Positions 7,429 to 45,349 of a stretch of DNA of 64,000 nt are shown here, in pieces; position 1 is the stretch's first letter, and each line of letters starts with the position of its first letter. The DNA is taken from sequence record PZ171032.1, one strand, 5' to 3'. This DNA is from a phage. The notes beneath the pieces are model-generated. The model saw only the letters and a program-made list of their open reading frames with translations, made no database searches and had not been told where the DNA came from. The translations under genes and the position numbers were made by a program.

Positions 7429-7445
7429 TGCAAAAGGAACCAGCT

Positions 7446-7772: not shown

Positions 7773-7780
7773 GGTGGATT

Positions 7781-8322: not shown

Positions 8323-8342
8323 CCACACATAGTTTGGAGAAT

Positions 8343-8444
8343 ATGGAATACACAATGAAAACACTGTCAGAGGTTTTAGTGGTGATCCTGATGATCATTA
8401 CGTCCATAGCAGCTGTTGCCGGAATACTCACGGGTGGAACATGA
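8343..8444 (+). CDS. tiny hydrophobic peptide (33 aa)
   Basis: just downstream of promoter; TM-like VLVVILMIITSIAAVAGIL; ATGA overlap with next gene. Confidence 0.35.
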   Translation: MEYTMKTLSEVLVVILMIITSIAAVAGILTGGT

Positions 8445-8653
8445 TCAACACACATGCATCTGAAGAGATATCCGAAGGAGTGACCATATGTCCCTTGGCT
8501 GAGCTAGGGAAAGAGGAAAACTTCGATTCTGAAGATTCTCCATCTCCGTCCCAGGGAGACCCTGAGGCTGATGACCTAACGTGGGAGGATATCATAGCCA
8601 TCTGGTTCTCTATTATGCCTGAGCACGAAGAGTTCAGAGGTGGGAGACTATGA
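8441..8653 (+). CDS. hypothetical acidic protein
   Basis: ATGA coupling to upstream peptide; acidic. Confidence 0.5.
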   Translation: MINTHASEEISEGVTICPLAELGKEENFDSEDSPSPSQGDPEADDLTWEDIIAIWFSIMPEHEEFRGGRL

Positions 8654-8774
8654 AGCACCGAGCCCACACAGGTTCCTCATGCTTTAGCATGGCCTGAAGA
8701 GGCAAACGTGCATAATTCCTGTGCATTGGAACGTATAAAACCCTGTTCACACTCTCATTTCCAGAGGAGATTTC

Positions 8775-8990
8775 ATGAAAATAGAAATATTTGGTGGGGC
8801 TGACAACACTCGTGGCCTGATTTACCTTGAATTCGATGAATCATACCTGCCAGAGGTGTTAAATATGGACTCTGTTGCTGAGGCTTTGGGGGTAAGTCCT
8901 AAAGAACTCCACTCTTGTGCTGAGATCGATGGTTGGGAAGAGACCATGAACATTGATTTCAGTGAAGTAGGTGATGAACCGCTGGACTGA
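8775..8990 (+). CDS. hypothetical protein
   Basis: GAGGAG RBS upstream of ATG. Confidence 0.55.
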   Translation: MKIEIFGGADNTRGLIYLEFDESYLPEVLNMDSVAEALGVSPKELHSCAEIDGWEETMNIDFSEVGDEPLD

Positions 8991-10489: not shown

Positions 10490-10590
10490 TGACACTTTTA
10501 CACACCTATTAGTTTACACACTGGATTGTTTACATTCCTGATTGTTCACATGCTAACCATTTACATGATTGACTGTTTACACACCGATAA
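10490..10590. repeat. iteron-like array of short direct repeats (TTTACACAC / TTTACAT, about 15-bp period)
   Basis: at least six copies of TTTACA(C/T) words spaced about 14-16 bp apart within 100 bp of ORF-free DNA. Confidence 0.5.
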
Positions 10591-10593
10591 TCA

Positions 10594-10613
10594 GCCATGC
10601 CATTCGTTTGCAT
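10594..10613. repeat. 20-bp direct repeat GCCATGCCATTCGTTTGCAT, copy 1
   Basis: exact 20-mer repeated at about 10825-10844. Confidence 0.6.
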
Positions 10614-10656
10614 GACAATAATTATACATGACAATAATCGCACTGATTATAATTAG

Positions 10657-10722
10657 CATGACATAATATAAAAGCAGGGCAACTATTAGCAGATCTATAG
10701 TTGCCCTGCTTGTTATGTCATG
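10657..10722. repeat. long imperfect palindrome (perfect 15-bp arms AAGCAGGGCAACTAT / ATAGTTGCCCTGCTT, extended by CATGACATAA arms)
   Basis: reverse-complementary arms around a 9-nt centre, seen directly in the sequence. Confidence 0.6.
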
Positions 10723-10824
10723 ATTAACTAAATACAAGGCAACTATGATCTGATTAATAGTTTGCAGACAAACTATCACGGGGGTGATGGTTACTGCTTT
10801 TATATTATGTCGCGACTCCGTCGC

Positions 10825-10844
10825 GCCATGCCATTCGTTTGCAT
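10825..10844. repeat. 20-bp direct repeat GCCATGCCATTCGTTTGCAT, copy 2
   Basis: exact copy of 10594-10613; preceded by palindromic GTCGCGAC. Confidence 0.6.
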
Positions 10845-11461
10845 AGTTGCCTTATTGTTACAGGTAAAATAATTACATTATTAATTATTTCTTATCTTTC
10901 TCTTAGTCATCTAATGATTCCAGTCAGTATAGTAATGTACAGTAAACATTAGACGACTAAATATTTCTATGCTTATGATAACTTGCCGTGACAATTTCGG
11001 ACTGTTTACGAAAAATGTTGACACCTGGGCGGGTTTATGTTATGCAGTTTACACGAATAATTATTTCATACAGGTATTGACTATTCCGTTATTCTGTGGT
11101 TGGAATAAATACTTTGCAGGCTATAGAATGGTGTGCGTACGTGAATTCTAAGATCTGGCGGCTATAGTTACACCCGATTTTTCACGTAGAACACGCTTTT
11201 TGGTTTGTGTAAGTGTATGACTTATAAAGATTTTTAGTTGTTGACAGGATATTGAAGATGTGCATCAGGTTAAATTTTGTGCAATAGCTGCAGTACGTGC
11301 ATTTTTGGAAGGAAAAACGTGTAAAAATGGTCCTGCTACCACATAATGAAAGATTATGCAATAGCTATTTTATATGTATATTTGTACAGTGTGTGGGATT
11401 GATGGCTCGTCAATTATTCCACTTGCTGGGTGGGGCCGTTTGTGGTAGGAGGAGAGCAGAC

Positions 11462-11486
11462 AAAAAGAAAGGGGCCTAAGCCCCTT
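11462..11486 (-). terminator. rho-independent terminator (minus strand)
   Basis: minus-strand hairpin AGGGGC-TTAG-GCCCCT followed by a T-run, just past the stop of gene ending at 11506. Confidence 0.5.
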
Positions 11487-11505
11487 GATAATGTAAATTG
11501 TTGTA

Positions 11506-11770
11506 TTATTTGTTACTCATCCAGTTTTCCCAAGCTGCCTGATAATCTGCCTCACTGCGGCGGATCTCTTCTTGTTCTTCAAGCCGGATCTCTTCTTCCA
11601 GGTACCCCAAGATATCGGCTTTTTTTGGTCTGGCGTAACATCCAATCATCTTTTTTACGGGTAAAGATCTTATATGCTTTCTCGCAAACCTCTTTTTTGC
11701 TACCTTTTTGGACTTCAAGAACTTTGTAGGCCATGTACTGAACTAGTTTGAGCTGATCAAGACGTTTCAT
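11506..11770 (-). CDS. hypothetical protein, apparently interrupted by a frameshift at a homopolymeric A tract
   Basis: two overlapping track ORFs (11579-11770 and 11506-11718) in different frames; frame switch coincides with an A7 run; fused product would be about 88 aa. Confidence 0.4.
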
Positions 11771-11833
11771 GATGTTTACCTCTTTATGGGGTTCTGGTTT
11801 GGTGTGGGCCTTTTGGCCCGTGTCATTATCTTA

Positions 11834-12106
11834 TTACTTACGGCGGCAAAATTCAAGTGTTTTTAATTGATAATCTTCCTCAGCTTGGAGTACAACCGCC
11901 TCGATCATTTCGTTGGCATTGGTGAAGCCATACCCTTGAGCGAACTCATCCGCGCCACCTTCGTGATCATGTTCTGCGTTCATCGCTTCCACAAAATGGA
12001 ATTCAAGATTGTTGAGGTAAGGGCTTGATGTTCCGTCCTCTTTTTCGATGAGATCCCAGATAGCATTAAAACGTGATTCGACTTCTTGATTAATCCAGCT
12101 TGACAT
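11834..12106 (-). CDS. hypothetical acidic protein
   Basis: ORF with compact spacing; no motif. Confidence 0.6.
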   Translation of the reverse strand: MSSWINQEVESRFNAIWDLIEKEDGTSSPYLNNLEFHFVEAMNAEHDHEGGADEFAQGYGFTNANEMIEAVVLQAEEDYQLKTLEFCRRK

Positions 12107-12318
12107 AATGTTTTCCTCTCTTCTGGTTGTTGTGTGGGCACTTTTGCCCCTTCAAGATAAATGATACCCCCACCACCTGGCAGATGTCAACGGTTTTTAT
12201 AGTTTTTTATATAACAGGCACCCACGGTGATTGTCTCCCCCCGTCGCCAAGTGCCACCCGTGAGACAAGTATACCAAAAAACAGGACCATTGCAAGCCCT
12301 GTTTATAGTCTATAAGGA

Positions 12319-12510
12319 TTATATTTTTTCGCCTATGTAGTCCGGCCTATTCTTTTCGGTCATACGCTTAAGCATTTTTTGCATATGGCTTATAGCTTGT
12401 AATGTATCCTCTTCCAGGGATGAATCTAGATAATCAGGATCATTCTTCACCTTGCAATGATTATGATAACGCAGTACCGCCAGTACTTTTTTAACTTCTT
12501 CCGCTGTCAT
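12319..12510 (-). CDS. hypothetical protein
   Basis: ORF; no motif. Confidence 0.55.
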   Translation of the reverse strand: MTAEEVKKVLAVLRYHNHCKVKNDPDYLDSSLEEDTLQAISHMQKMLKRMTEKNRPDYIGEKI

Positions 12511-12518
12511 TATCGCGC

Positions 12519-12653
12519 CTAAAACAATGAGTTAATATATAACACCAGATCGCTGACTACCAGGACAACATTAATCAGCACATACCTAACCATAAAGGGA
12601 AAGATCGCCAACATTGCCGCCACGATCCCCATGGTAATAATTATCTTTCTCAT
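12519..12653 (-). CDS. tiny hydrophobic peptide (44 aa)
   Basis: ORF filling the gap before 12319-12510; TM-like IIITMGIVAAMLAIFPF and VLINVVLVV. Confidence 0.3.
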   Translation of the reverse strand: MRKIIITMGIVAAMLAIFPFMVRYVLINVVLVVSDLVLYINSLF

Positions 12654-12921
12654 GGTTAACGGTTCACGTAAGTTTTCCCGTTTACGGTTATCGGCAGATC
12701 CTCCAGGTCTGGATCTTCTTTAAGGTCGCGAGCAAGTTCACCGCACCGAACGCCCTCGAATCCGTAGTACTCTGTCGTGCCATCCTGGAAAGTTTTAGCG
12801 GCAAGGCATAGGCGATAAGTAACACCGATTTGATTGACGGCATGGATATCAGTTAGATCTACCTCTTTTGCCAGCTTTTTGGCGCTTACAGGGCCAACCA
12901 GGGGCGCTATTCGTAGGATAG

Positions 12922-12950
12922 AAATAAAAAGCCCCGCACAATGGCGGGGC
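12922..12950 (-). terminator. rho-independent terminator (minus strand)
   Basis: hairpin GCCCCGC-loop-GCGGGGC followed on the minus strand by TTTTTATTT; directly downstream of stop at 12959. Confidence 0.55.
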
Positions 12951-12958
12951 GTTGGTTG

Positions 12959-13156
12959 TTATTTGTCTTTATGGCGGTATCGTTCTGCCTGTCGTTCACG
13001 TTCCAAAAGTAGGCCGGGCAATTTACGATCATAATGGTTACGCCAGATCTTCCCAAACCTTTTTGGCTTATTCAGTTTATTGTTACGCTGGCGGCGTTCT
13101 GGCAGCTCTTCGGAATCATGAGGGCGCTTTACAATTTTCTCGAAATTAATTTTCAT
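12959..13156 (-). CDS. hypothetical highly basic small protein
   Basis: ATG at 13156 preceded by AAGGGGGG RBS (track start 13180 is upstream non-ATG); Arg/Lys-rich. Confidence 0.55.
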   Translation of the reverse strand: MKINFEKIVKRPHDSEELPERRQRNNKLNKPKRFGKIWRNHYDRKLPGLLLERERQAERYRHKDK

Positions 13157-13517
13157 ATATTCCCCCCTTACTGATCTCAATATTTGCCTGAATCGCCCGG
13201 ATACGGCGCTTTATAACTTCCTGATCTGTGTGGTCGTATCCCCAAAAGTCCACAATTTTTGCGCCCCCCGCCTCCAGGCGGTATAGTGTTTCCTGCATTT
13301 TGTAAGCCGGGATCGGTCGCGGTGTTACTTGGTCACCTTCTTTATTTTTATACTTTATAATATAATCTTCGTTATCGTTGAATGTCCAAAATGGATATTC
13401 TGCAAGGGCGGCACTTCCTCTTTCCTTTTTGTCCTGGATCTTATTTACAATTAAAGCCGTAGCAATAGCGCCAATAATAAAACTTGCCCCGCTGATCATG
13501 TTACTTTCTCCTTTCAT
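13146..13517 (-). CDS. hypothetical membrane-anchored protein
   Basis: N-terminal TM helix ISGASFIIGAIATALIV; AAGGAGA RBS. Confidence 0.6.
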   Translation of the reverse strand: MKGESNMISGASFIIGAIATALIVNKIQDKKERGSAALAEYPFWTFNDNEDYIIKYKNKEGDQVTPRPIPAYKMQETLYRLEAGGAKIVDFWGYDHTDQEVIKRRIRAIQANIEISKGGIYEN

Positions 13518-13575
13518 TGTGTTGATAAACTATCTTTATAGATGGCCCTGCTACCAGGACCACCGAAAAAACAGT

Positions 13576-13821
13576 TTATTTGACGATACCGACAAAACAG
13601 ATCCCGCCTTCCCCTATATAGGCAATATCGGTAATTTTATAATTTGTCAAGATCCGCGTGTTCAGCTCATTAATAAAATCGGTCATCGCGTTGGTGTAGT
13701 TGTCTTCCGTATCTAAGGCATAATCCCAGGTGTAAACCTTTTTACGTCCGAAGCCTTTTACCATGATACGGGCGCTTTTGGTGTTAGTAGGGGCATAATA
13801 CTTGGTGATTAGTGCTGCCAT
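13576..13821 (-). CDS. hypothetical protein
   Basis: AAGGAG RBS; downstream of conserved promoter element. Confidence 0.6.
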   Translation of the reverse strand: MAALITKYYAPTNTKSARIMVKGFGRKKVYTWDYALDTEDNYTNAMTDFINELNTRILTNYKITDIAYIGEGGICFVGIVK

Positions 13822-13862
13822 GGTTTTAACTCCTTTGCATTAGTTCAGTGTTAACAGTATAA

Positions 13863-13892
13863 AGTTTACTTTATTGATGGCCCTGGAGTCAA
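13863..13892 (-). promoter_or_regulatory. sigma70-type promoter within conserved repeat (TTGACT-N18-TAAACT), minus strand
   Basis: repeat element GATGGCC...GGCCATC-AATAAAG-TAAACT shared with the copy at 14484-14513; -35 sits in the loop of the inverted repeat. Confidence 0.5.
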
Positions 13893-13911
13893 GGCCATCT
13901 AAAAATAAATT

Positions 13912-14253
13912 TTACTCGTTTTCTTCCAGCTCTGAAAGCTCTTCTTTCACTTCTTCCAGCTCTGTCTGCAATTCCCGGTATTCTTCATCGTCCTCAATAT
14001 CCAGGCTGTCGATGTAGTCGCTAAATCCGCAGCGGTAAGCGATAGGATCTAACTCCTTGAGGATACGCGACGGAAGAAAAGAAATGTTTCCGATCATAAT
14101 TTCGCCGTAGATCTCGTCTAACCATTCATCATAGTTTTCGTCGTACTTGTCCTCGTCGATTTCAAAGTTATCGATCTTGTTCTCAAGGTCTGCGATCTGT
14201 TTTTTCAGCGCGGCGATCTGCATAGCTTTTTCTGCGGCGGTCATAGTAGTCAT
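13912..14253 (-). CDS. hypothetical acidic protein (coiled-coil-like composition)
   Basis: AAGGAGA RBS; highly charged composition. Confidence 0.6.
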   Translation of the reverse strand: MTTMTAAEKAMQIAALKKQIADLENKIDNFEIDEDKYDENYDEWLDEIYGEIMIGNISFLPSRILKELDPIAYRCGFSDYIDSLDIEDDEEYRELQTELEEVKEELSELEENE

Positions 14254-14304
14254 GGTGTTTTCTCCTTTTGTGTGTTCTGGGAAGTTTTCCCGTTTACGTG
14301 TCTA

Positions 14305-14332
14305 AGTATACCGATTTGGGTTAGCTTGTCAA
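14305..14332 (-). promoter_or_regulatory. sigma70-type promoter (TTGACA-N16-TATACT), minus strand
   Basis: hexamers read on minus strand upstream of gene starting at 14253; followed by short hairpin GGGAA-AAC-TTCCC in the leader. Confidence 0.45.
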
Positions 14333-14452
14333 TTAAAAATTTAAGAAAAATTTTGCGACACCGTTGGCGCTACCCATCAACATTTGCGCCAGGATGTACC
14401 CAATGATGCAAACGATGATGGTTACCTTTGTGTGCTGGCGTGTAGTGCTCAT
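14333..14452 (-). CDS. tiny hydrophobic peptide (39 aa)
   Basis: AAAGGAGG RBS then ATG; TM-like VTIIVCIIGYILAQMLM. Confidence 0.3.
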   Translation of the reverse strand: MSTTRQHTKVTIIVCIIGYILAQMLMGSANGVAKFFLNF

Positions 14453-14483
14453 CTTCAAGCCTCCTTTTAGCCTAACTGAGATT

Positions 14484-14513
14484 AGTTTACTTTATTGATG
14501 GCCCTGGTGTCAA
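14484..14513 (-). promoter_or_regulatory. sigma70-type promoter within conserved repeat (TTGACA-N18-TAAACT), minus strand
   Basis: second copy of the about 45-bp element seen at 13863-13892. Confidence 0.5.
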
Positions 14514-14531
14514 GGCCATCTAAAAATAAAC

Positions 14532-14927
14532 TCAATAAGTTTTTAGTACTTTCCCGTCCAATCTGTCAAGCTGGATCTCGATAGCTGCAGAAAACCTATT
14601 GTAAACCACATCACCCAGGGAGTCCAGCCAATCTATGACGTTATATACCTGCTCTTTATTCTTGCAAGTCCGGATCCGTTTCATTACGTAAGACGGATCA
14701 ATATTAGCGCTCTCGTTGTTGTGGTCCTGCGCATGGCCTGCTGCGCTAGTTATAGATTTTACAACCACCTGAAAGGGCTTTAAGGTGCCTTTTGCGTTCA
14801 TCTCACGCGCTTTTGCTGCGCGGTTGTTATATGTTACACAACGGCGGCAAATGTTGACCAAATGCATATCAATAATTTTTTCATCGTTTGCCAGTTCGTT
14901 CATGATGCGGCGTACGTTCTTATTCAT
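14532..14927 (-). CDS. hypothetical protein
   Basis: ORF downstream of promoter 14976-15003; no motif. Confidence 0.6.
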   Translation of the reverse strand: MNKNVRRIMNELANDEKIIDMHLVNICRRCVTYNNRAAKAREMNAKGTLKPFQVVVKSITSAAGHAQDHNNESANIDPSYVMKRIRTCKNKEQVYNVIDWLDSLGDVVYNRFSAAIEIQLDRLDGKVLKTY

Positions 14928-14975
14928 GATCTTTTTCCTTTGTGCTGGCGGGAAACATTCCCGCCTTTTGTGTCT

Positions 14976-15003
14976 AGTTTACTTAAATTTTGCAGCGTGT
15001 CAA
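14976..15003 (-). promoter_or_regulatory. sigma70-type promoter (TTGACA-N16-TAAACT) with leader hairpin, minus strand
   Basis: hexamers on minus strand; hairpin GGCGGGA-loop-TCCCGCC at about 14948-14966 lies in the leader. Confidence 0.45.
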
Positions 15004-15009
15004 TGATTT

Positions 15010-15408
15010 TTATTCGTGGGCGCATGTTACAATGTGTTTTTTATAGCCCAGGTGGTCAGCAAGTGCCGACAAAAACTCTTCTTCGTAGATCCAGCCGTCG
15101 GCAGTGATCCCCATAGCATTTAATGCGCTCTCAAGTGCTGCGTTAGCTTTATCGTAACCGTGACCGCTCGCCTTGCCGCCAGTATAACCGTACTTATTGT
15201 TCTTGTTGTCGTGAATCCAAAACACGCAGTAGTGAGTGTTCCCGCTGGCGGCGGCATAATACCGGATCTCAGCTACTTCGTGCAAATTATTGCCATCGTC
15301 CAGGCCAACCAGATTATAAGCCTTGTAGAATCCACGATCACGGCGGCAGTTCTTGACATCAGAAAAAGAAAAGTCCGCATTATCAAAATTAAAGGTAGTG
15401 GTTTTCAT
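15010..15408 (-). CDS. hypothetical protein
   Basis: ORF; no motif. Confidence 0.6.
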   Translation of the reverse strand: MKTTTFNFDNADFSFSDVKNCRRDRGFYKAYNLVGLDDGNNLHEVAEIRYYAAASGNTHYCVFWIHDNKNNKYGYTGGKASGHGYDKANAALESALNAMGITADGWIYEEEFLSALADHLGYKKHIVTCAHE

Positions 15409-15472
15409 GATTTTATCCTCTTAGTGTCTTTTGTGCTTTTAGTGTATTTGGTGTCGGACTATATGTCAATAC

Positions 15473-15670
15473 TTATTTTTTATTAAACCAGTGGTTGATC
15501 TGGCCTTTTGTCAGGGCGCAACGATTAAGCTGTTGCCGGGTATAGCTCTGACCGCGACGGAATTTATAAAGGCCTTGCCCGTTGTTGATGGTTACGTCCA
15601 CCTGGCAAACCATTTGATCGGTGACGGCCTGGCGAGTGTTGCGACGTACTTTAATTCCGTAGGCGTTCAT
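15473..15670 (-). CDS. hypothetical protein
   Basis: ORF; no motif. Confidence 0.5.
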   Translation of the reverse strand: MNAYGIKVRRNTRQAVTDQMVCQVDVTINNGQGLYKFRRGQSYTRQQLNRCALTKGQINHWFNKK

Positions 15671-15687
15671 GATTTTTATCCTCTCTG

Positions 15688-15930
15688 TTAATTAGTGTGG
15701 TGTTGTTCACCTTGCGAGGATAAGAATAACAGAACTATCCGAGCTGTCAACCATTGGTTAGAATTATTTTTTGGGCAGAATTCTCCAGCCGCCGCCCCTG
15801 CCAGGTTAACCATCATTTTTTCGTACTCTTCTTTATGTTCCAACGCTCCCGCCATAGCCTTTTCAACCAGGGTGATAGCCTCAGCGTCATTAATCGCTAC
15901 ATTTCCCAGGTGAGTAGCATTACCTTTCAT
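15688..15930 (-). CDS. hypothetical protein
   Basis: ORF; no motif. Confidence 0.55.
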   Translation of the reverse strand: MKGNATHLGNVAINDAEAITLVEKAMAGALEHKEEYEKMMVNLAGAAAGEFCPKNNSNQWLTARIVLLFLSSQGEQHHTN

Positions 15931-16087
15931 TTTTGCACCTCCTCTTCAATTGTTTACCCTACAGCATGGGCCTACCAGGTTTGCAAGATTTCACCCTCTC
16001 CCACCTGGTCAGTTAGGTCCTGCCAGGCTGGCCCCGCCAGGTTGCAACGGTTAGCGCATCAGGTTAGAAAAATTTTTTGAAAAGGTG

Positions 16088-16116
16088 TTGACAGCGGCCC
16101 CGCCAGGTGGCACAAT
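16088..16116 (+). promoter_or_regulatory. promoter-like element (TTGACA-N17-CACAAT) of tandem unit 1
   Basis: perfect -35 hexamer, weak -10 with upstream TG; heads the first of two homologous about 80-nt units. Confidence 0.35.
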
Positions 16117-16129
16117 ATACCTATCGAAA

Positions 16130-16350
16130 GGACGGCAGGCACCGGTGACGGGGGAGACAACCACCGGGGATGGGCGCTGCATAAAATGAGAACGGTTATC
16201 ATTATCATTTAAAAATTTATGCAAAAAATCCTTGCCTTCTTTGTCCTGTGTGATACTATAATAACAAGCCGGGGCAACAGGGGCCGGGAGACAATCACCG
16301 GGCCTGCCCGTTATTCTGCAAACGAGAATGATTATCATTCAAAATTCTAA
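16130..16350 (+). ncRNA. candidate pair of tandem small-RNA or regulatory units (no family assigned)
   Basis: two homologous segments (GGGAGACAAYCACCGGG ... GAGAAYGRTTATCATT) each preceded by its own promoter-like element; no convincing ORF. Confidence 0.3.
16232..16259 (+). promoter_or_regulatory. promoter-like element (TTGCCT-N16-TGaTACTAT, extended -10) of tandem unit 2
   Basis: hexamers with extended -10 TG. Confidence 0.4.
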
Positions 16351-16458
16351 ATGAGAACTCCTCGCATTTAATAAATTTAATTAGCACGCTAATTACCCTC
16401 CGTAACAATTTCCTATAAAATAGTATCCACTAAAATATTCCCATATAGAAATTTTAAA

Positions 16459-16633
16459 AATCCATTTCTGAAAACGAAAAATCGATTTCGTCCCCAAAAA
16501 TTTCAGGTCGAGAGCCGGAACGATTTCCAGAAAATCCGATTCAGAAAACGAAAAACAGATCGAGTACTGAGAAATTTATCGAGAAAAATTTTCAGAAAAT
16601 TCAATCTTTGAAACGAAAAACAGATCGAGTACT
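16459..16633. repeat. direct repeats GAAAACGAAAAA(C/T)(A)GATCGAGTACT (three copies, about 70-85 bp apart)
   Basis: 25-mer repeated almost exactly at about 16544 and 16610, partial copy at about 16459; additional AAATCCATTTT words nearby. Confidence 0.5.
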
Positions 16634-16943
16634 TGGAAAGCTGCGCCACAACTTCAAGGTAGTGGTTGGATTATTACTATAAAAGGTCAAGGGTAAGTGG
16701 GGGAAGTTCTAGTAGAAGGGTGTGAGCATGTGCGGGAAATCTGTAATGGTGGTCTGGAATATGGTGCAGACGATAGGATGAGTGGTTCATCTCGTCGTGC
16801 CTGCTCTGAAAAATCCATTTTAGTTTTCGATCCATTTTCTGATTTTCTAAGGATTTTAAAATATCCTGGTAGGTAAAATATCAAAAGGAGGAAATCCATT
16901 TTAGAAATCCTCCTGATCTCTGGCAACCTGATAACTTAAAATA

Positions 16944-17276
16944 TCAGGCTCCCAGTGTGTTCTTTCCTTTATACAACCGTAAGGGTATAGTTTTTGTAAC
17001 AGTCCATCTCCCCAGCCCTTCCCAGTTCCAGTTGTAGGCATGGTACCCGGTTACGCATGCACTGCTGGAGTGATCATAGGCATAAGAGAACGCTATACGC
17101 ACCAAATGAAACCAGTCTTTCCACGGTTGTGGTCCGTAAGCTTTTCTCCAACACCGACACAAGCTAAATGTCTCAAGAATAGGCAGGATAACAAATCCAT
17201 ACACCGCCACCAGAATAGCCAACGCAATGATTGTCAGGAATACATACCCTGCAGTTGAAACGATGATCTCTGTCAT
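16944..17276 (-). CDS. hypothetical membrane protein
   Basis: two predicted TM helices (VFLTIIALAILVAVYGFVILPIL). Confidence 0.55.
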   Translation of the reverse strand: MTEIIVSTAGYVFLTIIALAILVAVYGFVILPILETFSLCRCWRKAYGPQPWKDWFHLVRIAFSYAYDHSSSACVTGYHAYNWNWEGLGRWTVTKTIPLRLYKGKNTLGA

Positions 17277-17476
17277 TTGTCGTCCCCTTTCTTATGGATA
17301 TAGATATGAGAGCCTGCCTGTATATAAATTTCTCGACCATCTTCTGCAAAGATATGAAATACACGATCACCTTCATACTCGATACGAGATATCTTCATAA
17401 TGGTCTTTCCACCTGGGATACGGATCTCGTCCCCCACAGCGATGTTCCATGCAGATTTAAGCTTAAACATCTGCAC
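17273..17476 (-). CDS. hypothetical protein
   Basis: stop/start overlap with neighbour. Confidence 0.5.
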   Translation of the reverse strand: MQMFKLKSAWNIAVGDEIRIPGGKTIMKISRIEYEGDRVFHIFAEDGREIYIQAGSHIYIHKKGDDK

Positions 17477-17708
17477 CCTCCTTTGGGAACTTGAACTCTG
17501 GCATAGCCATATACGCTACAACAGGGTTGTGATCAAAGTAGAACTGACCGTTAATTATCCCGGTTTTACTCACATAGTTACCAGATCCTGCAAGAGCAAC
17601 CTCGCAAGCTCCGAAATCTACATTGCCATCCTCATCAGCCATGGCTACGATATACTTTCCTAGAGGCATGTTTTTAACGCCGTCTACAAATGTCCACCCT
17701 TTGTTCAT
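17463..17708 (-). CDS. hypothetical protein
   Basis: ORF in packed array. Confidence 0.55.
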   Translation of the reverse strand: MNKGWTFVDGVKNMPLGKYIVAMADEDGNVDFGACEVALAGSGNYVSKTGIINGQFYFDHNPVVAYMAMPEFKFPKEGADV

Positions 17709-17728
17709 ACTTTATCTCCTGCACTTTC

Positions 17729-18061
17729 TTAAGGTAACCAGTAAACAATCTCGCCTTTCAGCTTCATGTCGTTTCCAACATAAATTTCCCAGCCATCCAT
17801 CTTAGCAACTGTAGGCCCAAAGTCATCCGCACCCCTTACCTCTTTCCAGGCTCCGTAGTCAGGTTGCCAGATATAGAATCCACCTTCTTTGTCCCATGCT
17901 CCGTACACTACGTTTAACAGGTTTCCCATTGCAACAATGGTGGGCCGTGGGAATAATACATCTACAGATGCGCCACAATTTCGGGTATCTTTTAAGTTGC
18001 AATCCCAAAAGATGTCTGCCAGTGTGGCGGCGATAGCTTTACGTCTTTCCAATGTTACCAT
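17729..18061 (-). CDS. hypothetical protein
   Basis: ORF in packed array. Confidence 0.55.
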   Translation of the reverse strand: MVTLERRKAIAATLADIFWDCNLKDTRNCGASVDVLFPRPTIVAMGNLLNVVYGAWDKEGGFYIWQPDYGAWKEVRGADDFGPTVAKMDGWEIYVGNDMKLKGEIVYWLP

Positions 18062-18071
18062 GGCACGATAC

Positions 18072-18263
18072 TCACTTGTTGTTAATAAGTTCTAAAACTT
18101 TCTGTCTTACTTTGTCAAGGTCTGTTGATTCAAAAACTGTGCGATATCCCCAACTTTGCCCATAGGAGTGACTGCAATCTCCGTAGCACCATTGCTCAAT
18201 TTGATAGTATTCAAGGAAGGGGTGCTGTCTAACTATGATGCCATCCCGGTTAAAAATTACCAT
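18072..18263 (-). CDS. hypothetical protein
   Basis: ORF in packed array. Confidence 0.5.
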   Translation of the reverse strand: MVIFNRDGIIVRQHPFLEYYQIEQWCYGDCSHSYGQSWGYRTVFESTDLDKVRQKVLELINNK

Positions 18264-18326
18264 AATACGTCGCTCTCTGTTAGTCTGTGCGTATATTATA
18301 CACTGTAGTTTTCAGATGTCAATCTT

Positions 18327-18521
18327 TTACAGGTTACTCCAGTATACTCGGCATTTACATTTCGGGCAATGAGGCTCTTTTATGTAATAACCATCAGTCT
18401 TTGGAACACTTTTTGGTGCAGTTTTAAGATTGTACCGAGTAAAACACCGGAAGCAGGTTACCTCTCCAACCTGTTGATCGTTTATCCACTCGCCAGAGTA
18501 AAGCTCTCTCTTGTTTCTCAT
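18327..18521 (-). CDS. hypothetical Cys-rich small protein (CxxC...CxxC)
   Basis: ATG at 18521 preceded by GGGAGAG RBS (track start 18578 is upstream GTG); paired CxxC motifs. Confidence 0.5.
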   Translation of the reverse strand: MRNKRELYSGEWINDQQVGEVTCFRCFTRYNLKTAPKSVPKTDGYYIKEPHCPKCKCRVYWSNL

Positions 18522-18547
18522 AATTCTCTCCCAAATCCTCTGCAATC

Positions 18548-18718
18548 TTATACCAAAATCTCCAGCCAGAAAGCACACGGGAACACTTTGATGATTGAAT
18601 CTTTACCTGGTTCAGCAGTTCTTTTTCCGTAGGGTAGGTAGAAATACCCTCCTGCAGATTCGAACACAGCCCCTTCGGTTGTATCTATCACAGCCAGAAT
18701 TAAGATTTTAGTCTCCAT
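18548..18718 (-). CDS. hypothetical small protein (56 aa)
   Basis: ATG with GAGGGAG RBS in an otherwise unexplained 190-bp gap; below track size cutoff. Confidence 0.4.
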   Translation of the reverse strand: METKILILAVIDTTEGAVFESAGGYFYLPYGKRTAEPGKDSIIKVFPCAFWLEILV

Positions 18719-35046: not shown

Positions 35047-36413
35047 ACGTCCCCCTCTTCGGCTCTGGTTTCAAAATCTTTCCTGACAATTTTGTCTAAG
35101 TCAGGGAATGTTGTATTGTAAAACTCTACGACTCGCGGGTCAACAATAATGTCAACTTCTCTTAGTGGACGCAACAAGTTTATTCCTTGTATTGTCTTAA
35201 CTCTGCTCAAAGCGACATACGTCATCCCAGGAGAGAAAGCTCCGTTCTTTCCAAGGTCTAGGTTGTAACAATCTAGCGTAAGTCCTTGACTTTTATGAGA
35301 TGTTACGGCGTACCCAGATTTCAGAGGAAGTTGCTTGTATGACCCAATCACTACCCTCTCTATAAACTTCTCCATCTTCCTTTCTGCAATGTTGTATCTC
35401 TGAGATGGCTTATACTCGTTATTCTCCCACAACCTCTGCTCTATGTCAACCTGTGTTCCATCTTCAAGCTCTACCACCACCGCCTTGTTCTTAAATTTAA
35501 CAATTGTGGCACGTGTTCCGTTAACATAATAAGGTACTTTGTGCGTCGGGTCAACATCGTTGGCGGTTATCATAACTTTCATGCCAATTTTCAACTTCAT
35601 CTCCTGCTCAACTGGCAGGGTGGAGGGAAACTTACCCTTCATTTCCCCAGTGTATACCTTCTCCGGGGCGTTGATGGCATCATAGAACCTTCTGTTCACT
35701 TCCTCTGCTTGTTTGTTGGTGGCGCAAATTGTGAGAGCGTCTGTTGGTACACCGCCTTTGTAACAGCGAGCATTAAGTTCTGCTACAACCTCTTTTATGC
35801 GACGACCCTCACGAACACAGTTGAGCATTGTGGCAAATCGAATAGACTCCTGTCGGAACTGATCTATTAGGGCTATGTTGTGGAGGTCAAGCTCTTTCCA
35901 AGATTCGGTATAGCAACACAGGTCTGTATGGTAGAAGTTGAAGTAGGCTTCCTTCTCCATAGAAGAGACAACAGGAGGTGCCTGGTAAAAATCGCCAAAC
36001 AATATGACCTGTATGCCTCCGAAAGGTTTGTCATTTTTTCGAAGGAAGCGAAGTTTCCTATCCATCTCTATAAACTTATCAGCACGGATCATAGAGATTT
36101 CATCGATAATCAGGATGGTAAATGCCTTGCTTTTCAAAGGCTTTGCTGTTTTTGCCCTTATTGCGGTCCAGTCTGACTCCATGCTCACACCTGCTGCAAG
36201 ATCGAAGGTTCGGTGTGCTGTTGCTCCATTAACGTTTAAAGCGGCTACCCCTGTCGGGGCAACCGTTATGCAAGAGTCTCCATACATTGACTGGATCATG
36301 TTGATGAGGTACGTCTTCCCACAACCTGCGGGTCCTGAAACGAAGACATTCTCACCGCTCATGATTGCAACGAGGGCAGCATCTGTGCCTACATCATACT
36401 GCCCTTTTTCCAT
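35043..36413 (-). CDS. Dda / RecD-like SF1 DNA helicase
   Basis: Walker A GPAGCGKTY; motif II IIDEISM; FGDFYQAPPV; motif VSHKSQGLTLD near C-terminus. Confidence 0.85.
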   Translation of the reverse strand: MEKGQYDVGTDAALVAIMSGENVFVSGPAGCGKTYLINMIQSMYGDSCITVAPTGVAALNVNGATAHRTFDLAAGVSMESDWTAIRAKTAKPLKSKAFTILIIDEISMIRADKFIEMDRKLRFLRKNDKPFGGIQVILFGDFYQAPPVVSSMEKEAYFNFYHTDLCCYTESWKELDLHNIALIDQFRQESIRFATMLNCVREGRRIKEVVAELNARCYKGGVPTDALTICATNKQAEEVNRRFYDAINAPEKVYTGEMKGKFPSTLPVEQEMKLKIGMKVMITANDVDPTHKVPYYVNGTRATIVKFKNKAVVVELEDGTQVDIEQRLWENNEYKPSQRYNIAERKMEKFIERVVIGSYKQLPLKSGYAVTSHKSQGLTLDCYNLDLGKNGAFSPGMTYVALSRVKTIQGINLLRPLREVDIIVDPRVVEFYNTTFPDLDKIVRKDFETRAEEGDV

Positions 36414-36691
36414 TACGCCTCCTCGTAAAGAATGTCGATAGTGTTACCGTCTCGGTCAACCACGTATTCAATCGGGTCTCCGTCCTTGCGTGCTTCCGGA
36501 GCTACCACAATCTCATAGCGGCATGCACGGCACTTAGCGCTATTGTGTTGGTATGGCACACTAACCACATCTGCAGGGTCAACCATGACAGTCATTACAG
36601 TGCCGTAGCTCTTCGCATACTCTTTGCTGGCGCAGTGTAAGCCATAGGAGCACGCAGCTTCAGGATCATCCTCTACAAAGTTACGAGGCAT
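36413..36691 (-). CDS. hypothetical protein (start uncertain; frame overlaps 3' end of upstream gene)
   Basis: track ORF starts at TTG 36778 overlapping upstream gene by about 100 nt in another frame; first in-frame ATG at 36691. Confidence 0.4.
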   Translation of the reverse strand: MPRNFVEDDPEAACSYGLHCASKEYAKSYGTVMTVMVDPADVVSVPYQHNSAKCRACRYEIVVAPEARKDGDPIEYVVDRDGNTIDILYEEA

Positions 36692-37617
36692 GGATACAAA
36701 AGCACCTTGGTATTGTGGGACTTTACCACTGTGCCAATCCACCCACTTGCTACCGTTAAACTGAACCCTTTGTAGCAAATGATTCGACCATCTTCTGCAA
36801 TCTGAATATCATTGGCCTGCATAAAATCGTAGAGCATGTTTACAGATTTTGCAGAAGGATTGCGTAGCAGGCGAACGAGGAATTTCACATAGCGGTCATC
36901 CAGCGTTCCGTCTGCATAATCTTTCTCAATTTTCTTTGCAATGGTGGATCGCATCTCTACACCGTAGTAGTAGAGCTTACCATCTTTCATGATCAGGTTG
37001 TCTGCAAGTGTGGTGAACTCATTCTTGCGTTCCAGCCAGACAAGGATTTCACCAATTGCCTCGTCATATTCCTGAACAGAGATATGGTCGAAGACTTTCT
37101 GGTAAACTTCCTCACTTTCGCTGCGGCGAATTTCAAAAATGCCTTCGTTGCAGGTGATCTGGAGGAGTTCCCCACAAATAACTACCAAAGGCTCGATGCT
37201 TCGAGTTTGTTGCTGAGACACACTGCTCACCACCTCCAGCACCGGATCTTTGACTTCTACTAAAGGTTCTTCTGACTTGATTGCCACCCCAGTGAACCCC
37301 ACACCGTGAACAACACACAGTGGGTATACCACGCCCCAACGTTTAACGGAACCTTCGCCTAAGTCTAAGATCATGGCGTACTTACCATTATCTTCCAATC
37401 CATAGCGGAATAAACGGGCCTCTTCGCGGGTTTCAAAATCCTCACGGGTGTAGCAGACGCTGTCACGGTCAGGATCGAACAACTCTGGGGCACCCACTGC
37501 CAGTGTCCAGGTTGTGTCGCCTTTCTCAATGGCACATGTGAAACCCTTCTTCTCAAGTTCTGCACGGCGGTCTCGTGCTTCTTTACGGGTTTTGAAATGT
37601 TCGTAGATGAAAATCAT
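36673..37617 (-). CDS. hypothetical protein with two N-terminal about 40-aa repeats
   Basis: repeated module (YEHFKTRKEARDRRAELEKKGF... / YTREDFETREEARLFRYGLEDNGKY...). Confidence 0.55.
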   Translation of the reverse strand: MIFIYEHFKTRKEARDRRAELEKKGFTCAIEKGDTTWTLAVGAPELFDPDRDSVCYTREDFETREEARLFRYGLEDNGKYAMILDLGEGSVKRWGVVYPLCVVHGVGFTGVAIKSEEPLVEVKDPVLEVVSSVSQQQTRSIEPLVVICGELLQITCNEGIFEIRRSESEEVYQKVFDHISVQEYDEAIGEILVWLERKNEFTTLADNLIMKDGKLYYYGVEMRSTIAKKIEKDYADGTLDDRYVKFLVRLLRNPSAKSVNMLYDFMQANDIQIAEDGRIICYKGFSLTVASGWIGTVVKSHNTKVLLYPCLVTL

Positions 37618-37627
37618 CTTGGTCTCC

Positions 37628-39610
37628 TTATTTGATGTTATTCTTTGTATCGATCAGTTCACGGTATTCAATCATAGCAGGAGTGTCCCAATATTTCAAG
37701 CCCACATGCTTCAAAAGTGGATATTTCTTTTCCAATCTTGCAATATAGGCCTTTCCGCACTTAACCCGGTTGGCGATTAAGATTTTGGCACGATGATTTA
37801 GCTCACTGTGCTTCCACGCGGTGTTACCTTCCCACTTGTGGAAATGTGGCCGATAATTTCCAAAATCCTGCATGGGGATAATTTTCCCTAATTGTCTATA
37901 CAGGCTGTCATATGAAGTTTCATTTGCTGCGCGAGTCAGTAAGAATTTCCAGGCGTCCTCTTTCAACAAATGTTCCACATTTTTCTCTGTAACATACTGG
38001 CAATCAGGATCAGTCCAAAGCAGACGGGATTCTGATACCAGGTACAGGTCTTCCCCTTCAGGAATCTGGAGTGCCGCACGCACACGGTCATAATTTTGCT
38101 GGTAGATGTTACTCAGCTGTCCCAGCCAACAACTTCCACGTTGGATATCGCCCTCATAAGGAATGCAGTGCTTAATCTTCTTGAACTCTGCCTTAGTAAT
38201 ACGTTCACGACGGAAGTAACCATCCTTCTCAAGCTTTTTAACCCAATAACCTGGCTCGTAATGAGTTTTTGTTTCACCTTTCTTCGCAGGTCGGCGAGGG
38301 AGCTCTGATAACAATTTGACCGTATCTGCAAAGAACGGGTGGTGTGCCGCTTCTTTAAACTCTTCCACCAAATCCGTGTTACGGCAATAGAAAACGTTGC
38401 GTCCGGTGATCTCGCTTAAGTAGTTACACTTATTTCGGTTATATTTGCCGTCTCCGTCGTTAAACACTAAGTAGACCCCTCGTAAGAACTCCGACTTTCC
38501 GTAGCAGGCGTAACCTATGCGGCCTTTATTTAAGCCGCCAGCGAAGATCTCACAATCTCCCAAACTTCCTAGTCCTGTCTCTTCCCATCGGTCCCACATA
38601 AAATTCTTACCGAAGATGTGCCCGAACACTCCACTGTTCTTCATCATCTCACGTGCTTCTGAGGATGTTTTTGCTGTCTCCAATTCCGCAACAACTTCTG
38701 CCCCACGAAGACGGATACCCTCTTTGACAAAAGCCTCCAACCGCTCTTGGAATCCACCATCGTCGTGCCCCTCTATGGTCCATTCGCGCCCAGGGTTAAT
38801 ATTGCAATCCCCAATAGGGATCTCTACACAGATTGCAGGGTAGTCTGTCAATGTTTCCAGAAACTTAGAGCGGTAAGGTTGGTGTCCCATCACCACACGG
38901 CTCTCATCAGAGCTGGTATAACCTTTCAGGATAGTCATTTTCCAACCATCTTTCTCGTAGCGATACTGCGCCTCAACCTTGTCACCTTCCAGCATCTTAC
39001 TGGTCATAGGGTCGGTAACGGTAAACGGAAACTTTGCATAGCGTAGGCATGACGCAATAGCAGTGCGATATTTCAGAATATGCTCTTTCTTAACATGGAA
39101 CTGAACTTTTACCCCGTTGTGCTCTTCAGTCTTTCGCTCGCGGATCTTGGTAACGTTTGGGATACCCTGATCCAAGAACAATAGATATGTGCTTTCAACA
39201 CCATTGTGTACACTGATCACATCGAAAGTGTCCACCATGCTGAACGGGGCCTTTGAACCAACACCTTTATTACCCACCAGAGCGTTGCTGTTGCGCTTGG
39301 TTGACTCTCCGAGGTTCATGAAAGTGTTGCGGACCATCTCTTCTGACATGCCTAATCCAACGTCCTGCACAAAGAAGTATGGTTCAAGGTCTGTAGGAGA
39401 GTGAATGATGATCGGTACATCGCCCCGTCCAGACTCAACATGAGAGTCCACAGCATTGAAGATTGGTTCACGGCAGCTTGCCAGCACCTTATCTTCGTAA
39501 ATCCCTTTAATGATTAGCCCAAAAGTCTCTTTGTTCAGAGAAATTGAGCCCCTGGTGACCTCCATATTTCCAGTTAGCACTGCTTTAGTTTCATTACTGT
39601 TTACAATCAT
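37628..39610 (-). CDS. GHKL-superfamily ATPase (Bergerat fold; Hsp90/MORC-like N-terminal domain) with about 450-aa C-terminal region of unknown function
   Basis: N-box EPIFNAVDSH, G1-box VQDVGLGM, G2-box GNKGVGSKAPF in correct order and spacing within the first about 130 aa. Confidence 0.6.
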   Translation of the reverse strand: MIVNSNETKAVLTGNMEVTRGSISLNKETFGLIIKGIYEDKVLASCREPIFNAVDSHVESGRGDVPIIIHSPTDLEPYFFVQDVGLGMSEEMVRNTFMNLGESTKRNSNALVGNKGVGSKAPFSMVDTFDVISVHNGVESTYLLFLDQGIPNVTKIRERKTEEHNGVKVQFHVKKEHILKYRTAIASCLRYAKFPFTVTDPMTSKMLEGDKVEAQYRYEKDGWKMTILKGYTSSDESRVVMGHQPYRSKFLETLTDYPAICVEIPIGDCNINPGREWTIEGHDDGGFQERLEAFVKEGIRLRGAEVVAELETAKTSSEAREMMKNSGVFGHIFGKNFMWDRWEETGLGSLGDCEIFAGGLNKGRIGYACYGKSEFLRGVYLVFNDGDGKYNRNKCNYLSEITGRNVFYCRNTDLVEEFKEAAHHPFFADTVKLLSELPRRPAKKGETKTHYEPGYWVKKLEKDGYFRRERITKAEFKKIKHCIPYEGDIQRGSCWLGQLSNIYQQNYDRVRAALQIPEGEDLYLVSESRLLWTDPDCQYVTEKNVEHLLKEDAWKFLLTRAANETSYDSLYRQLGKIIPMQDFGNYRPHFHKWEGNTAWKHSELNHRAKILIANRVKCGKAYIARLEKKYPLLKHVGLKYWDTPAMIEYRELIDTKNNIK

Positions 39611-40107
39611 TTATTGCGCTCCTTGTAGTAGATATGACTCCCGAATTGAGCTGTCCTCTGCATCTTTTTTGCCCATTTCGGTCGTACTTTGGTCGTATGG
39701 TAGTGTGTTGCTCCACCTGTTATATCCATAGCCATGTATGCAACATGGTTGTTATTATAGACCTTTAGAAGCATCTTTGCAAGACTTTTAGCGTGATCCC
39801 ATGAATCTTTTTCTGTCACCTTAAAAGTTTTGCCGTAGTTTGTCCACGAAAACTGATTAGGTTGGTAGACAATCTTTCTTATAGTGTCCGGGTATTTGGG
39901 ATGAGATTTCCTGTTTAGGGTGGCAAACCCAGATGCCAGCATACCCATCGTGCCATCCCCTCTAGCTTCCCTGTAGATATTGCATGCTAGAATGTTTTCC
40001 TTAGTATCTGATGGCTTGCAAGTATGGTATACTTTTTGTTTTGGTGCTGCAACAACAGGCAGCGATAAAAATGCGCTCAAAATAATAGCAAAGATCTTAA
40101 TTTTCAC
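39607..40107 (-). CDS. SleB-like cell wall hydrolase with cleavable signal peptide (endolysin candidate)
   Basis: N-terminal signal peptide MKIKIFAIILSAFLSLPVVA; hydrolase_2 motifs NIYREARGD and VYQPNQFSWTN. Confidence 0.7.
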   Translation of the reverse strand: MKIKIFAIILSAFLSLPVVAAPKQKVYHTCKPSDTKENILACNIYREARGDGTMGMLASGFATLNRKSHPKYPDTIRKIVYQPNQFSWTNYGKTFKVTEKDSWDHAKSLAKMLLKVYNNNHVAYMAMDITGGATHYHTTKVRPKWAKKMQRTAQFGSHIYYKERNK

Positions 40108-40546: not shown

Positions 40547-41731
40547 TTAAGCTTTAGCCAAAATGGCGCTAAACTCTTCACCAAACTCTTTTACAATCTT
40601 CATCAGGTTTGGGTATGCTTTGATCAACTGAGCAACAATCTTGTCACGCCCTTTACCGATAAGCAAGGCATTTCCTAAGGCGTTAGGTTTCATCATCGCC
40701 ATAAAGACTGAGAATACAAAATCTCGGTTCTCGTCCTTGAAATTTTCCCAAAGGAAATCGAGGAAGTTTGCCACACAGCTAACAAGATCTTCGTCGGAGA
40801 TACTTGCATTTTCCATCATATTGCGAATAGCGATACAACCTTCAGATCCAAGAATCCACAAAATGTCTGGCTGCTTAGGACCTACGTATTCTTTGCAGCC
40901 ACCTGCCATAATCCGACCGATTTCCGGTAAATTACGTTTCTTGGTGTGGTAAGTCCAGATCTCTACCGCTGCAGTGTGACCAATAGCACCTTGTAGAAGA
41001 ACACGGGCCATAGCGTCAGAAATAATACCGCTGTCAAAATCGTGCAAGATGTCAGATGCAGCAACCCAAGATCGCGGTGTGGCAAAAGATGGACAATTAA
41101 TCTCAGCCATAGCCTCATAATTATCAATAGCTGAGGGAACTCTTTTCAAATATCCAATTACAGAGGAATGCACCCCATTAAGGAATGCGTAGTCCTCAAT
41201 AAACACCTCTGCATTGCTTGTAACCTCTACAATGATAAAACGGTTAGCCAGAGGGGCTTCGAGCGCCGAAAGAACCGCACCATCTGTAGAACGGTTACCC
41301 GCAGCCACAAAAACAGAACCCTTAGGGAATGCATAGGTGCCGCACTTGTGGTCAAGCATAATTTGCATTGCAACCTTTTGCAGGTAGTTATCTGCATGAG
41401 TGAGCTCATCCAGAAAGATAATTCCGCTCCAGTCAGGATCCGCAGGCCAAAATTCTGGAATTGCAAACACTGTACGTGTAGTTCCATCCGCTTCTACAGG
41501 GATAGGTAGCCCAGATAAGTCGGCAGGATCTTTATCTGACAGTCGCACGTCAACAAGGTTGTCATCTCGCTCACCGAACATATTATCAGCGATCTGCTTC
41601 ATCACCTGGCTTTTACCCACACCCATTGGTCCCAAAATTAGGACAGATCGGCTATGACGTTGGGCAAACTGAATAATAGCTGGCAACTCACGGACAGTGA
41701 TTTGACCACTTTCGAATACGTTTCTTGACAT
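40547..41731 (-). CDS. MoxR/CbbQ-like AAA+ ATPase
   Basis: Walker A LILGPMGVGKS; Walker B IIFLDELTHAD; sensor-1-like VFVAAGN. Confidence 0.75.
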   Translation of the reverse strand: MSRNVFESGQITVRELPAIIQFAQRHSRSVLILGPMGVGKSQVMKQIADNMFGERDDNLVDVRLSDKDPADLSGLPIPVEADGTTRTVFAIPEFWPADPDWSGIIFLDELTHADNYLQKVAMQIMLDHKCGTYAFPKGSVFVAAGNRSTDGAVLSALEAPLANRFIIVEVTSNAEVFIEDYAFLNGVHSSVIGYLKRVPSAIDNYEAMAEINCPSFATPRSWVAASDILHDFDSGIISDAMARVLLQGAIGHTAAVEIWTYHTKKRNLPEIGRIMAGGCKEYVGPKQPDILWILGSEGCIAIRNMMENASISDEDLVSCVANFLDFLWENFKDENRDFVFSVFMAMMKPNALGNALLIGKGRDKIVAQLIKAYPNLMKIVKEFGEEFSAILAKA

Positions 41732-42000
41732 TAGTAAAAGTCCTCTACTTGTGTGTAAGTGTTTTCAAAGTTTTCCAAAACAGATATCACATCGAATCTG
41801 TCAATATCATACGTGACTCTCCAGTTGTACGCAACCCTTTCTGCTGTTGCCTCTTCTGGCGCTAGTCGTCTGCTGGCATAAAAGAGTGTTGGAGTACACT
41901 TTCTTGCTTGCCCTCTAACTTTCCCATAATAATATCTGTGAATATCTTTGTCAAAATTTAACTCTTTTTCTGCACGAAGTTCATATTGCTGGTATAACAT
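41731..42000 (-). CDS. hypothetical protein
   Basis: stop/start overlap. Confidence 0.5.
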   Translation of the reverse strand: MLYQQYELRAEKELNFDKDIHRYYYGKVRGQARKCTPTLFYASRRLAPEEATAERVAYNWRVTYDIDRFDVISVLENFENTYTQVEDFY

Positions 42001-44298: not shown

Positions 44299-44311
44299 CA
44301 CGTTTTTGATG

Positions 44312-44340
44312 TTGACATCTGTTGAGACAATTGATACGAT
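44312..44340 (+). promoter_or_regulatory. sigma70-type promoter (TTGACA-N17-TACGAT), plus strand, divergent
   Basis: hexamers; inverted repeat GTCAACA...TGTTGAC spans the two -35 regions. Confidence 0.5.
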
Positions 44341-44371
44341 TTCTTCACTTACAGAGCACGAGAGACGACTC

Positions 44372-45349
44372 ATGAATCTTGAAAAATATTATACACCAGA
44401 AGAGTTAGAGCGCTTGCTCAAAAAATATAGACGCAAACAGAATAACGCACGGAAACGAGATATAGAGTTCGACCTGTCATGGGAAGAATACCTCCTATTT
44501 GGTAAAAAACTTTTAGGAGATGGAGTATGCGACTATACCCTTATACCTTTTGACATGCACACAGATGAAAACGGGCTGGGGAATCCTTTCTACCCATCTC
44601 TGGAGCGGATAGATGATGAAGGTCCTTATGCGGTTGATAACTGTTGTGTGGTGGGATTGAGATGCAACTCTCTAAAGGACTGTCTGGTAGATAAAAAGAC
44701 TGCAGTCTTGATTAAAGACGAAACTGATCGAAAAATTGTCCAGCAGATGATGCTCCACCTGAGCGAAGAGCGTATGGAGAAATTGAAAGGTGATTATACT
44801 TTTGAAGATTTCATCTTGCAATATGGAACGGAAGAGGATAAACTAGCACTCTTTGACGAAGAAGAGGAGGAAGATATGCTACCGATGTCTAAAGTTACTT
44901 ATCGTGCACCCAAGAAGCACATTTCCGACATTGTAAACGAGCCTATCACAGAAGAGATTGAAGAAATGACGCAACAGGTGCATGAAGAGGAAAAAGAGAC
45001 TCAGGAGGTCGAAGAGGAGATTACAGAAGAGGTTCCTGCACTACCTGATGATGTTGAGATTGCCAAAGCTTACACTTTCTATTGTCAAACGTTCTACGAT
45101 GTAGGTATGAAAGTTGATCTGTCGTTCAGCCAATTTAAGAGTTCGTATATTCGCAAATGCTGTGCTTTAACTGGTGAACGTCTTGGAGCTGGACTTAAAC
45201 CCCTGTTGGTGACCGACTGGAATAAAGGTTTCACTAAAGGAAACTTTATGGTAGTATCTCCAATTATGGAGAAAGCTATGACAGATCTTATGAAGACCAC
45301 CCGCATGACAATGACCGAGTTGGCAGGTATTTTCAAACACGTTAAATAA
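44372..45349 (+). CDS. hypothetical acidic two-part protein (internal MSKVTYRA segment)
   Basis: track ORF starts at TTG 44306 inside the promoter; first ATG at 44372; contains internal copy of the 30-bp repeat. Confidence 0.6.
   Translation: MNLEKYYTPEELERLLKKYRRKQNNARKRDIEFDLSWEEYLLFGKKLLGDGVCDYTLIPFDMHTDENGLGNPFYPSLERIDDEGPYAVDNCCVVGLRCNSLKDCLVDKKTAVLIKDETDRKIVQQMMLHLSEERMEKLKGDYTFEDFILQYGTEEDKLALFDEEEEEDMLPMSKVTYRAPKKHISDIVNEPITEEIEEMTQQVHEEEKETQEVEEEITEEVPALPDDVEIAKAYTFYCQTFYDVGMKVDLSFSQFKSSYIRKCCALTGERLGAGLKPLLVTDWNKGFTKGNFMVVSPIMEKAMTDLMKTTRMTMTELAGIFKHVK

Follow-up and report, generated by a model that had tools for sequence, protein, structure and literature searches.

The locus at 37,628 to 39,610 raises the question of whether a large reading frame carrying a GHKL (Bergerat-fold) ATPase domain encodes a novel, stand-alone enzyme of the replication module, as a preliminary description made from the sequence had proposed, or a phage gene of known type. 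The question was addressed within the whole stretch of phage DNA in sequence record PZ171032.1 (64,000 nucleotides), referred to here as the window. The reading frame and its translation signal were delineated as follows.

37628..39610, minus strand: rIIA coding sequence, stop codon included (660 aa, ATG start), from the ORF call, PHROG 612 and annotation in relatives
39619..39624, minus strand: AAGGAG ribosome-binding site, 8 nt 5' of the rIIA ATG and within the end of the hydrolase gene, read from the sequence

The stop codon of the hydrolase gene and the start codon of rIIA read as an ATGA overlap, coupling rIIA to the gene that precedes it. The profile PHROG 612 "RIIA lysis inhibitor" (phrog_612) was matched at E=4.6e-125 by residues 1-658 of the protein against positions 1-724 of 725. 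Membership in the rIIA family is indicated by this full-length similarity, by a GHKL N-terminal domain that has its homologue in T4 RIIA and retains the motif residues, by an adjacent and co-oriented rIIB (frameshifted in this window) and by a C-terminal region of the RIIA type, as found with a C-terminal-only model against BFVD. Very probably, the reading frame represents rIIA of a phage belonging to Vequintavirus (rV5-like myoviruses of E. coli) and has an accessory counter-defence role that it exerts together with rIIB.

The window belongs to Vequintavirus, and its rIIB-rIIA segment (36300-39700) is 98.2% identical to that of phage isim (species Vequintavirus murica), while some 120 deposited genomes share at least 90% identity with it. 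In many of these relatives, isim included, the gene adjoins rIIB and is annotated under such names as rIIA, "RIIA lysis inhibitor" and "membrane integrity protector", and several of their records begin numbering at rIIA, as does T4. Across Vequintavirus (rV5, Murica, isim, EdH4, BASEL Bas5x), rIIA is of equal length, lies in the same gene order and shows 90-98% nucleotide identity to the gene described here; the differences in rIIA are only allelic (best identity 97.8%). The proposal of a novel factor is contradicted by these data: the protein is RIIA from end to end and, far from being a new DNA-handling factor, is the product of a long-known gene. Sixteen unannotated MG0656xx "Campylobacter phage" records (host given as Campylobacter jejuni) are also 95-98% identical to the rIIB-rIIA segment; this host label looks doubtful, or the records may represent contaminating coliphages.

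Comparison with T4, whose RIIA (725 aa) and RIIB protect against prophage (lambda RexAB)-induced exclusion, places the two RIIA proteins in the same family by full-length profile. Pairwise similarity is concentrated in the N-terminus, with 28% identity over 198 aa (BLASTP, E=3e-21), whereas past residue ~200 no pairwise sequence similarity is detectable between the two, and the protein described here is 65 aa shorter. The T4 protein shares the invariant residues E47, N51, D54, D81, G83, G85, G117, G120, G122, Y244, R278 and E279. In T4, as here, rIIB lies directly downstream of rIIA on the circular map, while the other neighbours of the rII genes differ, being a helicase and a SleB hydrolase in this window and the topoisomerase gene 60 and denB in T4.

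The ATPase character of the N-terminus, which had been recognised from its motifs by eye, was borne out at the positions originally given for them.

39041..39535, minus strand: Bergerat-fold (GHKL) ATP-binding domain, aa ~26-190, from Pfam, PDB profile matches and hhalign

The N-box reads E48-x3-N52-x2-D55, the G1 box D83-x-G85-x-G87 and the G2 box G113-x2-G116-x-G118. A search with HATPase_c-type profiles, suggested earlier as a check, was significant, with Pfam HATPase_c_3 matching the N-terminus at E=1.8e-8 and scoring 34.9 bits, above the curated threshold of 25 bits. These nine motif residues, together with Y246, R275 and E276, are invariant in 31 aligned RIIA sequences including T4, and the predicted GHKL active site is intact as judged from them. 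The further suggestion that the motif spellings lean towards Hsp90 also held up. A profile built from 30 homologues matched Hsp90-family chains in the PDB at E~1e-8, and all of the best 60 matches shown were Hsp90, TRAP1, Grp94 or HtpG. By hhalign, residues 28-199 aligned with residues 15-210 of E. coli HtpG at a probability of 96.6%, and NCBIfam returned sub-threshold "HSP90 family" matches with this protein and T4 RIIA alike. RIIA thus carries a Bergerat N-domain with Hsp90 motifs: it shares with HtpG, TRAP1, Grp94 and Hsp82 the spellings RE-x3-NA-x-DA, D-x-G-x-GM and G-x2-G-x-G and an S-TK segment, with HMMER pairing the ESTKR segment at residues 102-106 with "KSGTK" of Hsp90. Judged by its sequence, the ATPase core leans clearly towards Hsp90 as its nearest relative. 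Identity to Hsp90 proteins amounts to ~14-20%.

Beyond the ATP-binding domain, a second domain was delineated, within which an invariant residue pair may be relevant to catalysis.

38741..39040, minus strand: second domain of GHL transducer or Hsp90-middle type, aa ~191-290
38783..38788, minus strand: codons of the invariant R275-E276, including a candidate catalytic-loop arginine (R278-E279 in T4 RIIA; HMMER against HtpG)

Outside the ATP pocket, the residues invariant in 31 of 31 aligned sequences are Y246, R275 and E276 (Y244, R278 and E279 in T4). HMMER aligned the RIIA segment "iGdldvnpsRE" with "SSDLPLNVSRE" of HtpG, placing R275-E276 opposite R336-E337; this pairing was not confirmed by hhalign, whose alignment stops at residue 199. 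In Hsp90, the middle-domain loop arginine (R380 in yeast) touches the gamma-phosphate of ATP, and the equivalence of R275 to this arginine is proposed provisionally. The likeness to the Hsp90 middle domain is not significant by sequence alone, and a profile restricted to the second domain gave no significant match in the PDB. Structure prediction, also suggested earlier, gave full-length TRAP1 as the best structural match, extending over 297 residues, and left residues 291-660 without a match among solved structures.

The remaining part of the protein had been described as having no recognisable motif.

37631..38740, minus strand: RIIA C-terminal region, aa 291-660, mixed alpha/beta with long helices, basic (pI 8.9)

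The model of these 370 residues matched no solved structure, no DNA-enzyme fold and no part of Hsp90, and the C-terminal dimerisation domain of Hsp90 is absent. The region does resemble the C-termini of other RIIA proteins: searched alone against BFVD, the model recovered RIIA of 44RR2.8t (E=2.9e-8) and KVP40 (E=1.3e-7), with further RIIA matches in Marfa, Arno18, Bmoc and others, so that the fold is akin to that in T4-like phages. The TM-scores of these matches were low (0.2-0.37), and the likeness is therefore one of segments and not of a rigid whole. The C-terminal sequence itself is confined to this phage lineage. A weak match (E=5.4e-3) was also seen to BFVD entry L7TK51, a protein of 932 aa from Halorubrum sodomense tailed virus 2 labelled "Chaperone protein HTPG domain", a hint that tailed viruses of archaea, too, encode RIIA-like proteins and that such proteins at times carry an Hsp90-like label. 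No transmembrane helix was predicted in RIIA; its association with the membrane, if any, would therefore be peripheral or mediated by partners.

These domain assignments bear directly on the original proposal of a stand-alone GHKL enzyme of the replication module that manipulates DNA in the manner of a topoisomerase, MutL or MORC. Pfam detected no Toprim domain, no MutL C-terminal domain and no CW or coiled-coil module of the MORC type, and the likeness to GyrB, ParE and gp39 is one of fold and covers only the first two domains. None of the other GHL ATPases (GyrB/ParE/gp39, MutL, MORC, SMCHD1 or Topo VI-B) appeared among the 60 best profile-to-PDB matches shown, a scan of neighbouring and large ORFs in the window revealed no topoisomerase gene, and T4 has topoisomerase II genes of its own (39 and 60) beside rIIA, which indicates that RIIA is not the ATPase of a phage topoisomerase. 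Together with the RIIA match over the full length, the C-terminal model and the published absence of any effect of knock-downs without RexAB (PMC11879866), these results render a DNA-manipulating role nearly excluded and the original proposal extremely improbable.

The view of the protein as an orphan ATPase without a partner was likewise in error, since rIIB lies directly downstream; it had been overlooked because a topoisomerase subunit was sought.

36413..37617, minus strand: rIIB, split into two overlapping ORFs at 36673..37617 (314 aa) and 36413..36778 (121 aa), PHROG 609
36766..36768, minus strand: 1-bp deletion in rIIB, the coding strand reading GGG in place of GGGG (plus strand CCC), with a change of frame past codon ~283

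Co-oriented with rIIA, rIIB begins 10 nt past its stop codon, and the two ORFs match consecutive positions, 806-973 and 957-1046, of PHROG 609 "RIIB". In relatives the gene is intact as a single reading frame of 401 aa (312 aa in T4), and the intact Vequintavirus protein aligns with T4 RIIB over 204 aa at 37% identity (E=4e-39). In two distant metagenome homologues of RIIA (18-21% identity), a RIIB-family gene is again directly downstream, which indicates that the two-gene module is conserved. Along the 1055 positions of the PHROG 609 profile, ~10-302 correspond to RIIA-type N-terminal sequence and 806-1046 to RIIB, and this arrangement suggests that natural RIIA-RIIB fusions may occur in some phages; such fusions, if present, would support a physical cooperation of both proteins. 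At the N-terminus of Vequintavirus RIIB (37400-37617, aa 1 to ~100), a pair of similar "F-x-T-R-x-E-A-R" segments was observed together with a match to the SPOR domain that is weak and below threshold (E~1e-3), while the T4 RIIB N-terminus gave weak helix-turn-helix matches; the N-terminal module of RIIB may differ between lineages.

The deletion is peculiar to this window when compared with the 30 best-matching Vequintavirus relatives listed, in all 30 of which the rIIB region measures 1206 nt as opposed to 1205 nt here. Over these 1206 nt, the missing G is the sole difference from isim, and no other isolated homopolymer indel occurs in the 15.4 kb aligned to that phage, so that the deletion does not belong to a general error pattern. 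The frameshift removes the C-terminal ~118 aa of RIIB, the portion best conserved with T4. A programmed frameshift was considered and is unlikely, given that no slippery heptamer lies in frame at the shift site and that all listed relatives are uninterrupted. The deletion represents either a single sequencing error or a natural frameshift mutation, in which case the isolate may be a natural rIIB mutant and hence RexAB-sensitive. If the sequence is right, the isolate is predicted to be excluded by RexAB and to fail to grow on lambda lysogens, which would be relevant if the phage were considered for therapy or typing.

Further observations were made in the surroundings of the module. Within 36413-39610, rIIB is 99.9% identical to both isim and O157 typing phage 4, the deletion being the only difference, while the adjacent rIIA is 97.1% identical to isim and 94.8% to O157 typing phage 4 and has its best matches in BP9 and VB-EcoM-WM; this mosaic pattern suggests a putative recombination boundary between the two genes. 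An 89-aa ORF (41731-42000) just upstream of a MoxR-type ATPase gene occupies the position of a gene that isim also labels "MoxR ATPase", and it may represent an N-terminal fragment of MoxR that has been split off or mis-annotated. On the plus strand, ORF 44306-45349, called "anti-sigma factor" in isim and matched in PHROGs to an HNH endonuclease and weakly to a "decoy of host sigma70", contains at 44866-44982 a short, indel-rich patch that is highly divergent from isim. Positions 1-18700 of the window hold only small ORFs (none of at least 150 aa) and no tRNA genes, and strand polarity switches near 8 kb by GC skew; the first ~18 kb look like a block of small early genes.

The role of the module in infection is best viewed in the light of published work. 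Adler et al. 2025 (PMC11879866) knocked down RIIA or RIIB in T4, MM02, EdH4, SUSP1 and N4, and saw an effect, lowered plating, on hosts expressing lambda RexAB and none on Rex-free E. coli; EdH4 belongs to Vequintavirus murica, the species of isim, the closest relative of the window. By HIDEN-SEQ, T4 rIIA and rIIB were found to be conditionally essential against RexAB, and the RIIA/RIIB orthologues of Bas37 were implicated in clinical isolates, while the rIIA/B homologues of Bas63 are reported in the PhageMaP preprint to act against QatABCD. In addition, a bacterial gasdermin/CARD system senses RIIB as its trigger, and RIIB is regarded as a transcription factor by Iyer et al. The family match and the RexAB-dependent knock-downs (PMC11879866) indicate that the counter-defence function suggested in the preliminary description was right. 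The way in which RIIA and RIIB neutralise RexAB is stated to be unknown in those papers (including PMC11879866).

In the reading that we favour, RIIA and RIIB very probably form an accessory module, dispensable on naive hosts and required against RexAB-type abortive infection that depolarises the membrane. RIIA would bind ATP in its Bergerat pocket, close the ATP lid and clamp, probably as a dimer, in the manner of Hsp90 and GHL ATPases, with R275 of the second domain completing the active site. Through the lineage-specific C-terminal region, the ATP cycle would then perform conformational work whose target is RIIB, host defence proteins or both, and this action would prevent or reverse membrane collapse. 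The details of the clamp and of R275 are drawn by analogy and are tentative, with somewhat less than an even chance of being correct. That RIIA is a true Hsp90-type split ATPase, in which the middle-domain R275 (R278 in T4) completes the N-domain pocket for the ATP-dependent remodelling of RIIB or host abortive-infection proteins, is possible and rather doubtful.

The same literature can be read differently: RIIA and RIIB might be general membrane integrity protectors or factors of lysis timing (the classical r phenotype), in which case resistance to RexAB would be a by-product and not the specific inhibition of a defence protein. The widespread annotations as "membrane integrity protector" or "lysis inhibitor" agree with such generic protection, as do the reported importance of rII homologues against RexAB and QatABCD and in clinical isolates and the sensing of RIIB itself by the gasdermin/CARD system; RIIA nevertheless lacks a transmembrane segment, and the knock-downs had no phenotype on Rex-free hosts, and we regard this explanation as somewhat unlikely. 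Alternatively, RIIA may act as a chaperone of the Hsp90 kind that chiefly serves a phage protein or a replication or assembly complex, counter-defence being secondary. The Hsp90-like N-domain with its possible catalytic loop would suit such a role, and a MoxR-type AAA+ ATPase (394 aa) is encoded three genes upstream of rIIA in the 40547-42000 region; the weak helix-turn-helix matches of T4 RIIB and the transcription-factor view of Iyer et al. point in the same direction. Against it stand the missing Hsp90 dimerisation domain and the dispensability of the genes on Rex-free hosts, which counts against an essential folding or assembly role, and a phage client as the main target is quite improbable.

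The main value of the finding for the scan is one of correction: the preliminary description was sound in calling the protein a Hsp90-leaning GHKL ATPase with a counter-defence function and mistaken in calling it orphan, novel and partner-less, the flagged ORF being classical rIIA. The architecture of a GHKL domain with a variable C-terminus is in the literature beforehand, and the Hsp90-like ATPase, the second GHL-type domain with the invariant R275-E276 and the description of the C-terminal 370 aa are new details; the candidate catalytic loop of Hsp90 type and the rIIB frameshift are modest, testable additions. The residual value is mechanistic and concerns how RIIA and RIIB defeat RexAB, for which the Hsp90-like core and the invariant R-E pair suggest point mutants that can be tested, at E48 and R275 in this protein and at E47 and R278 in T4. 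If the split-ATPase reading were true, RIIA would be a phage-encoded relative of Hsp90, and the 70-year-old rII/Rex problem would gain a concrete, mutable catalytic mechanism.
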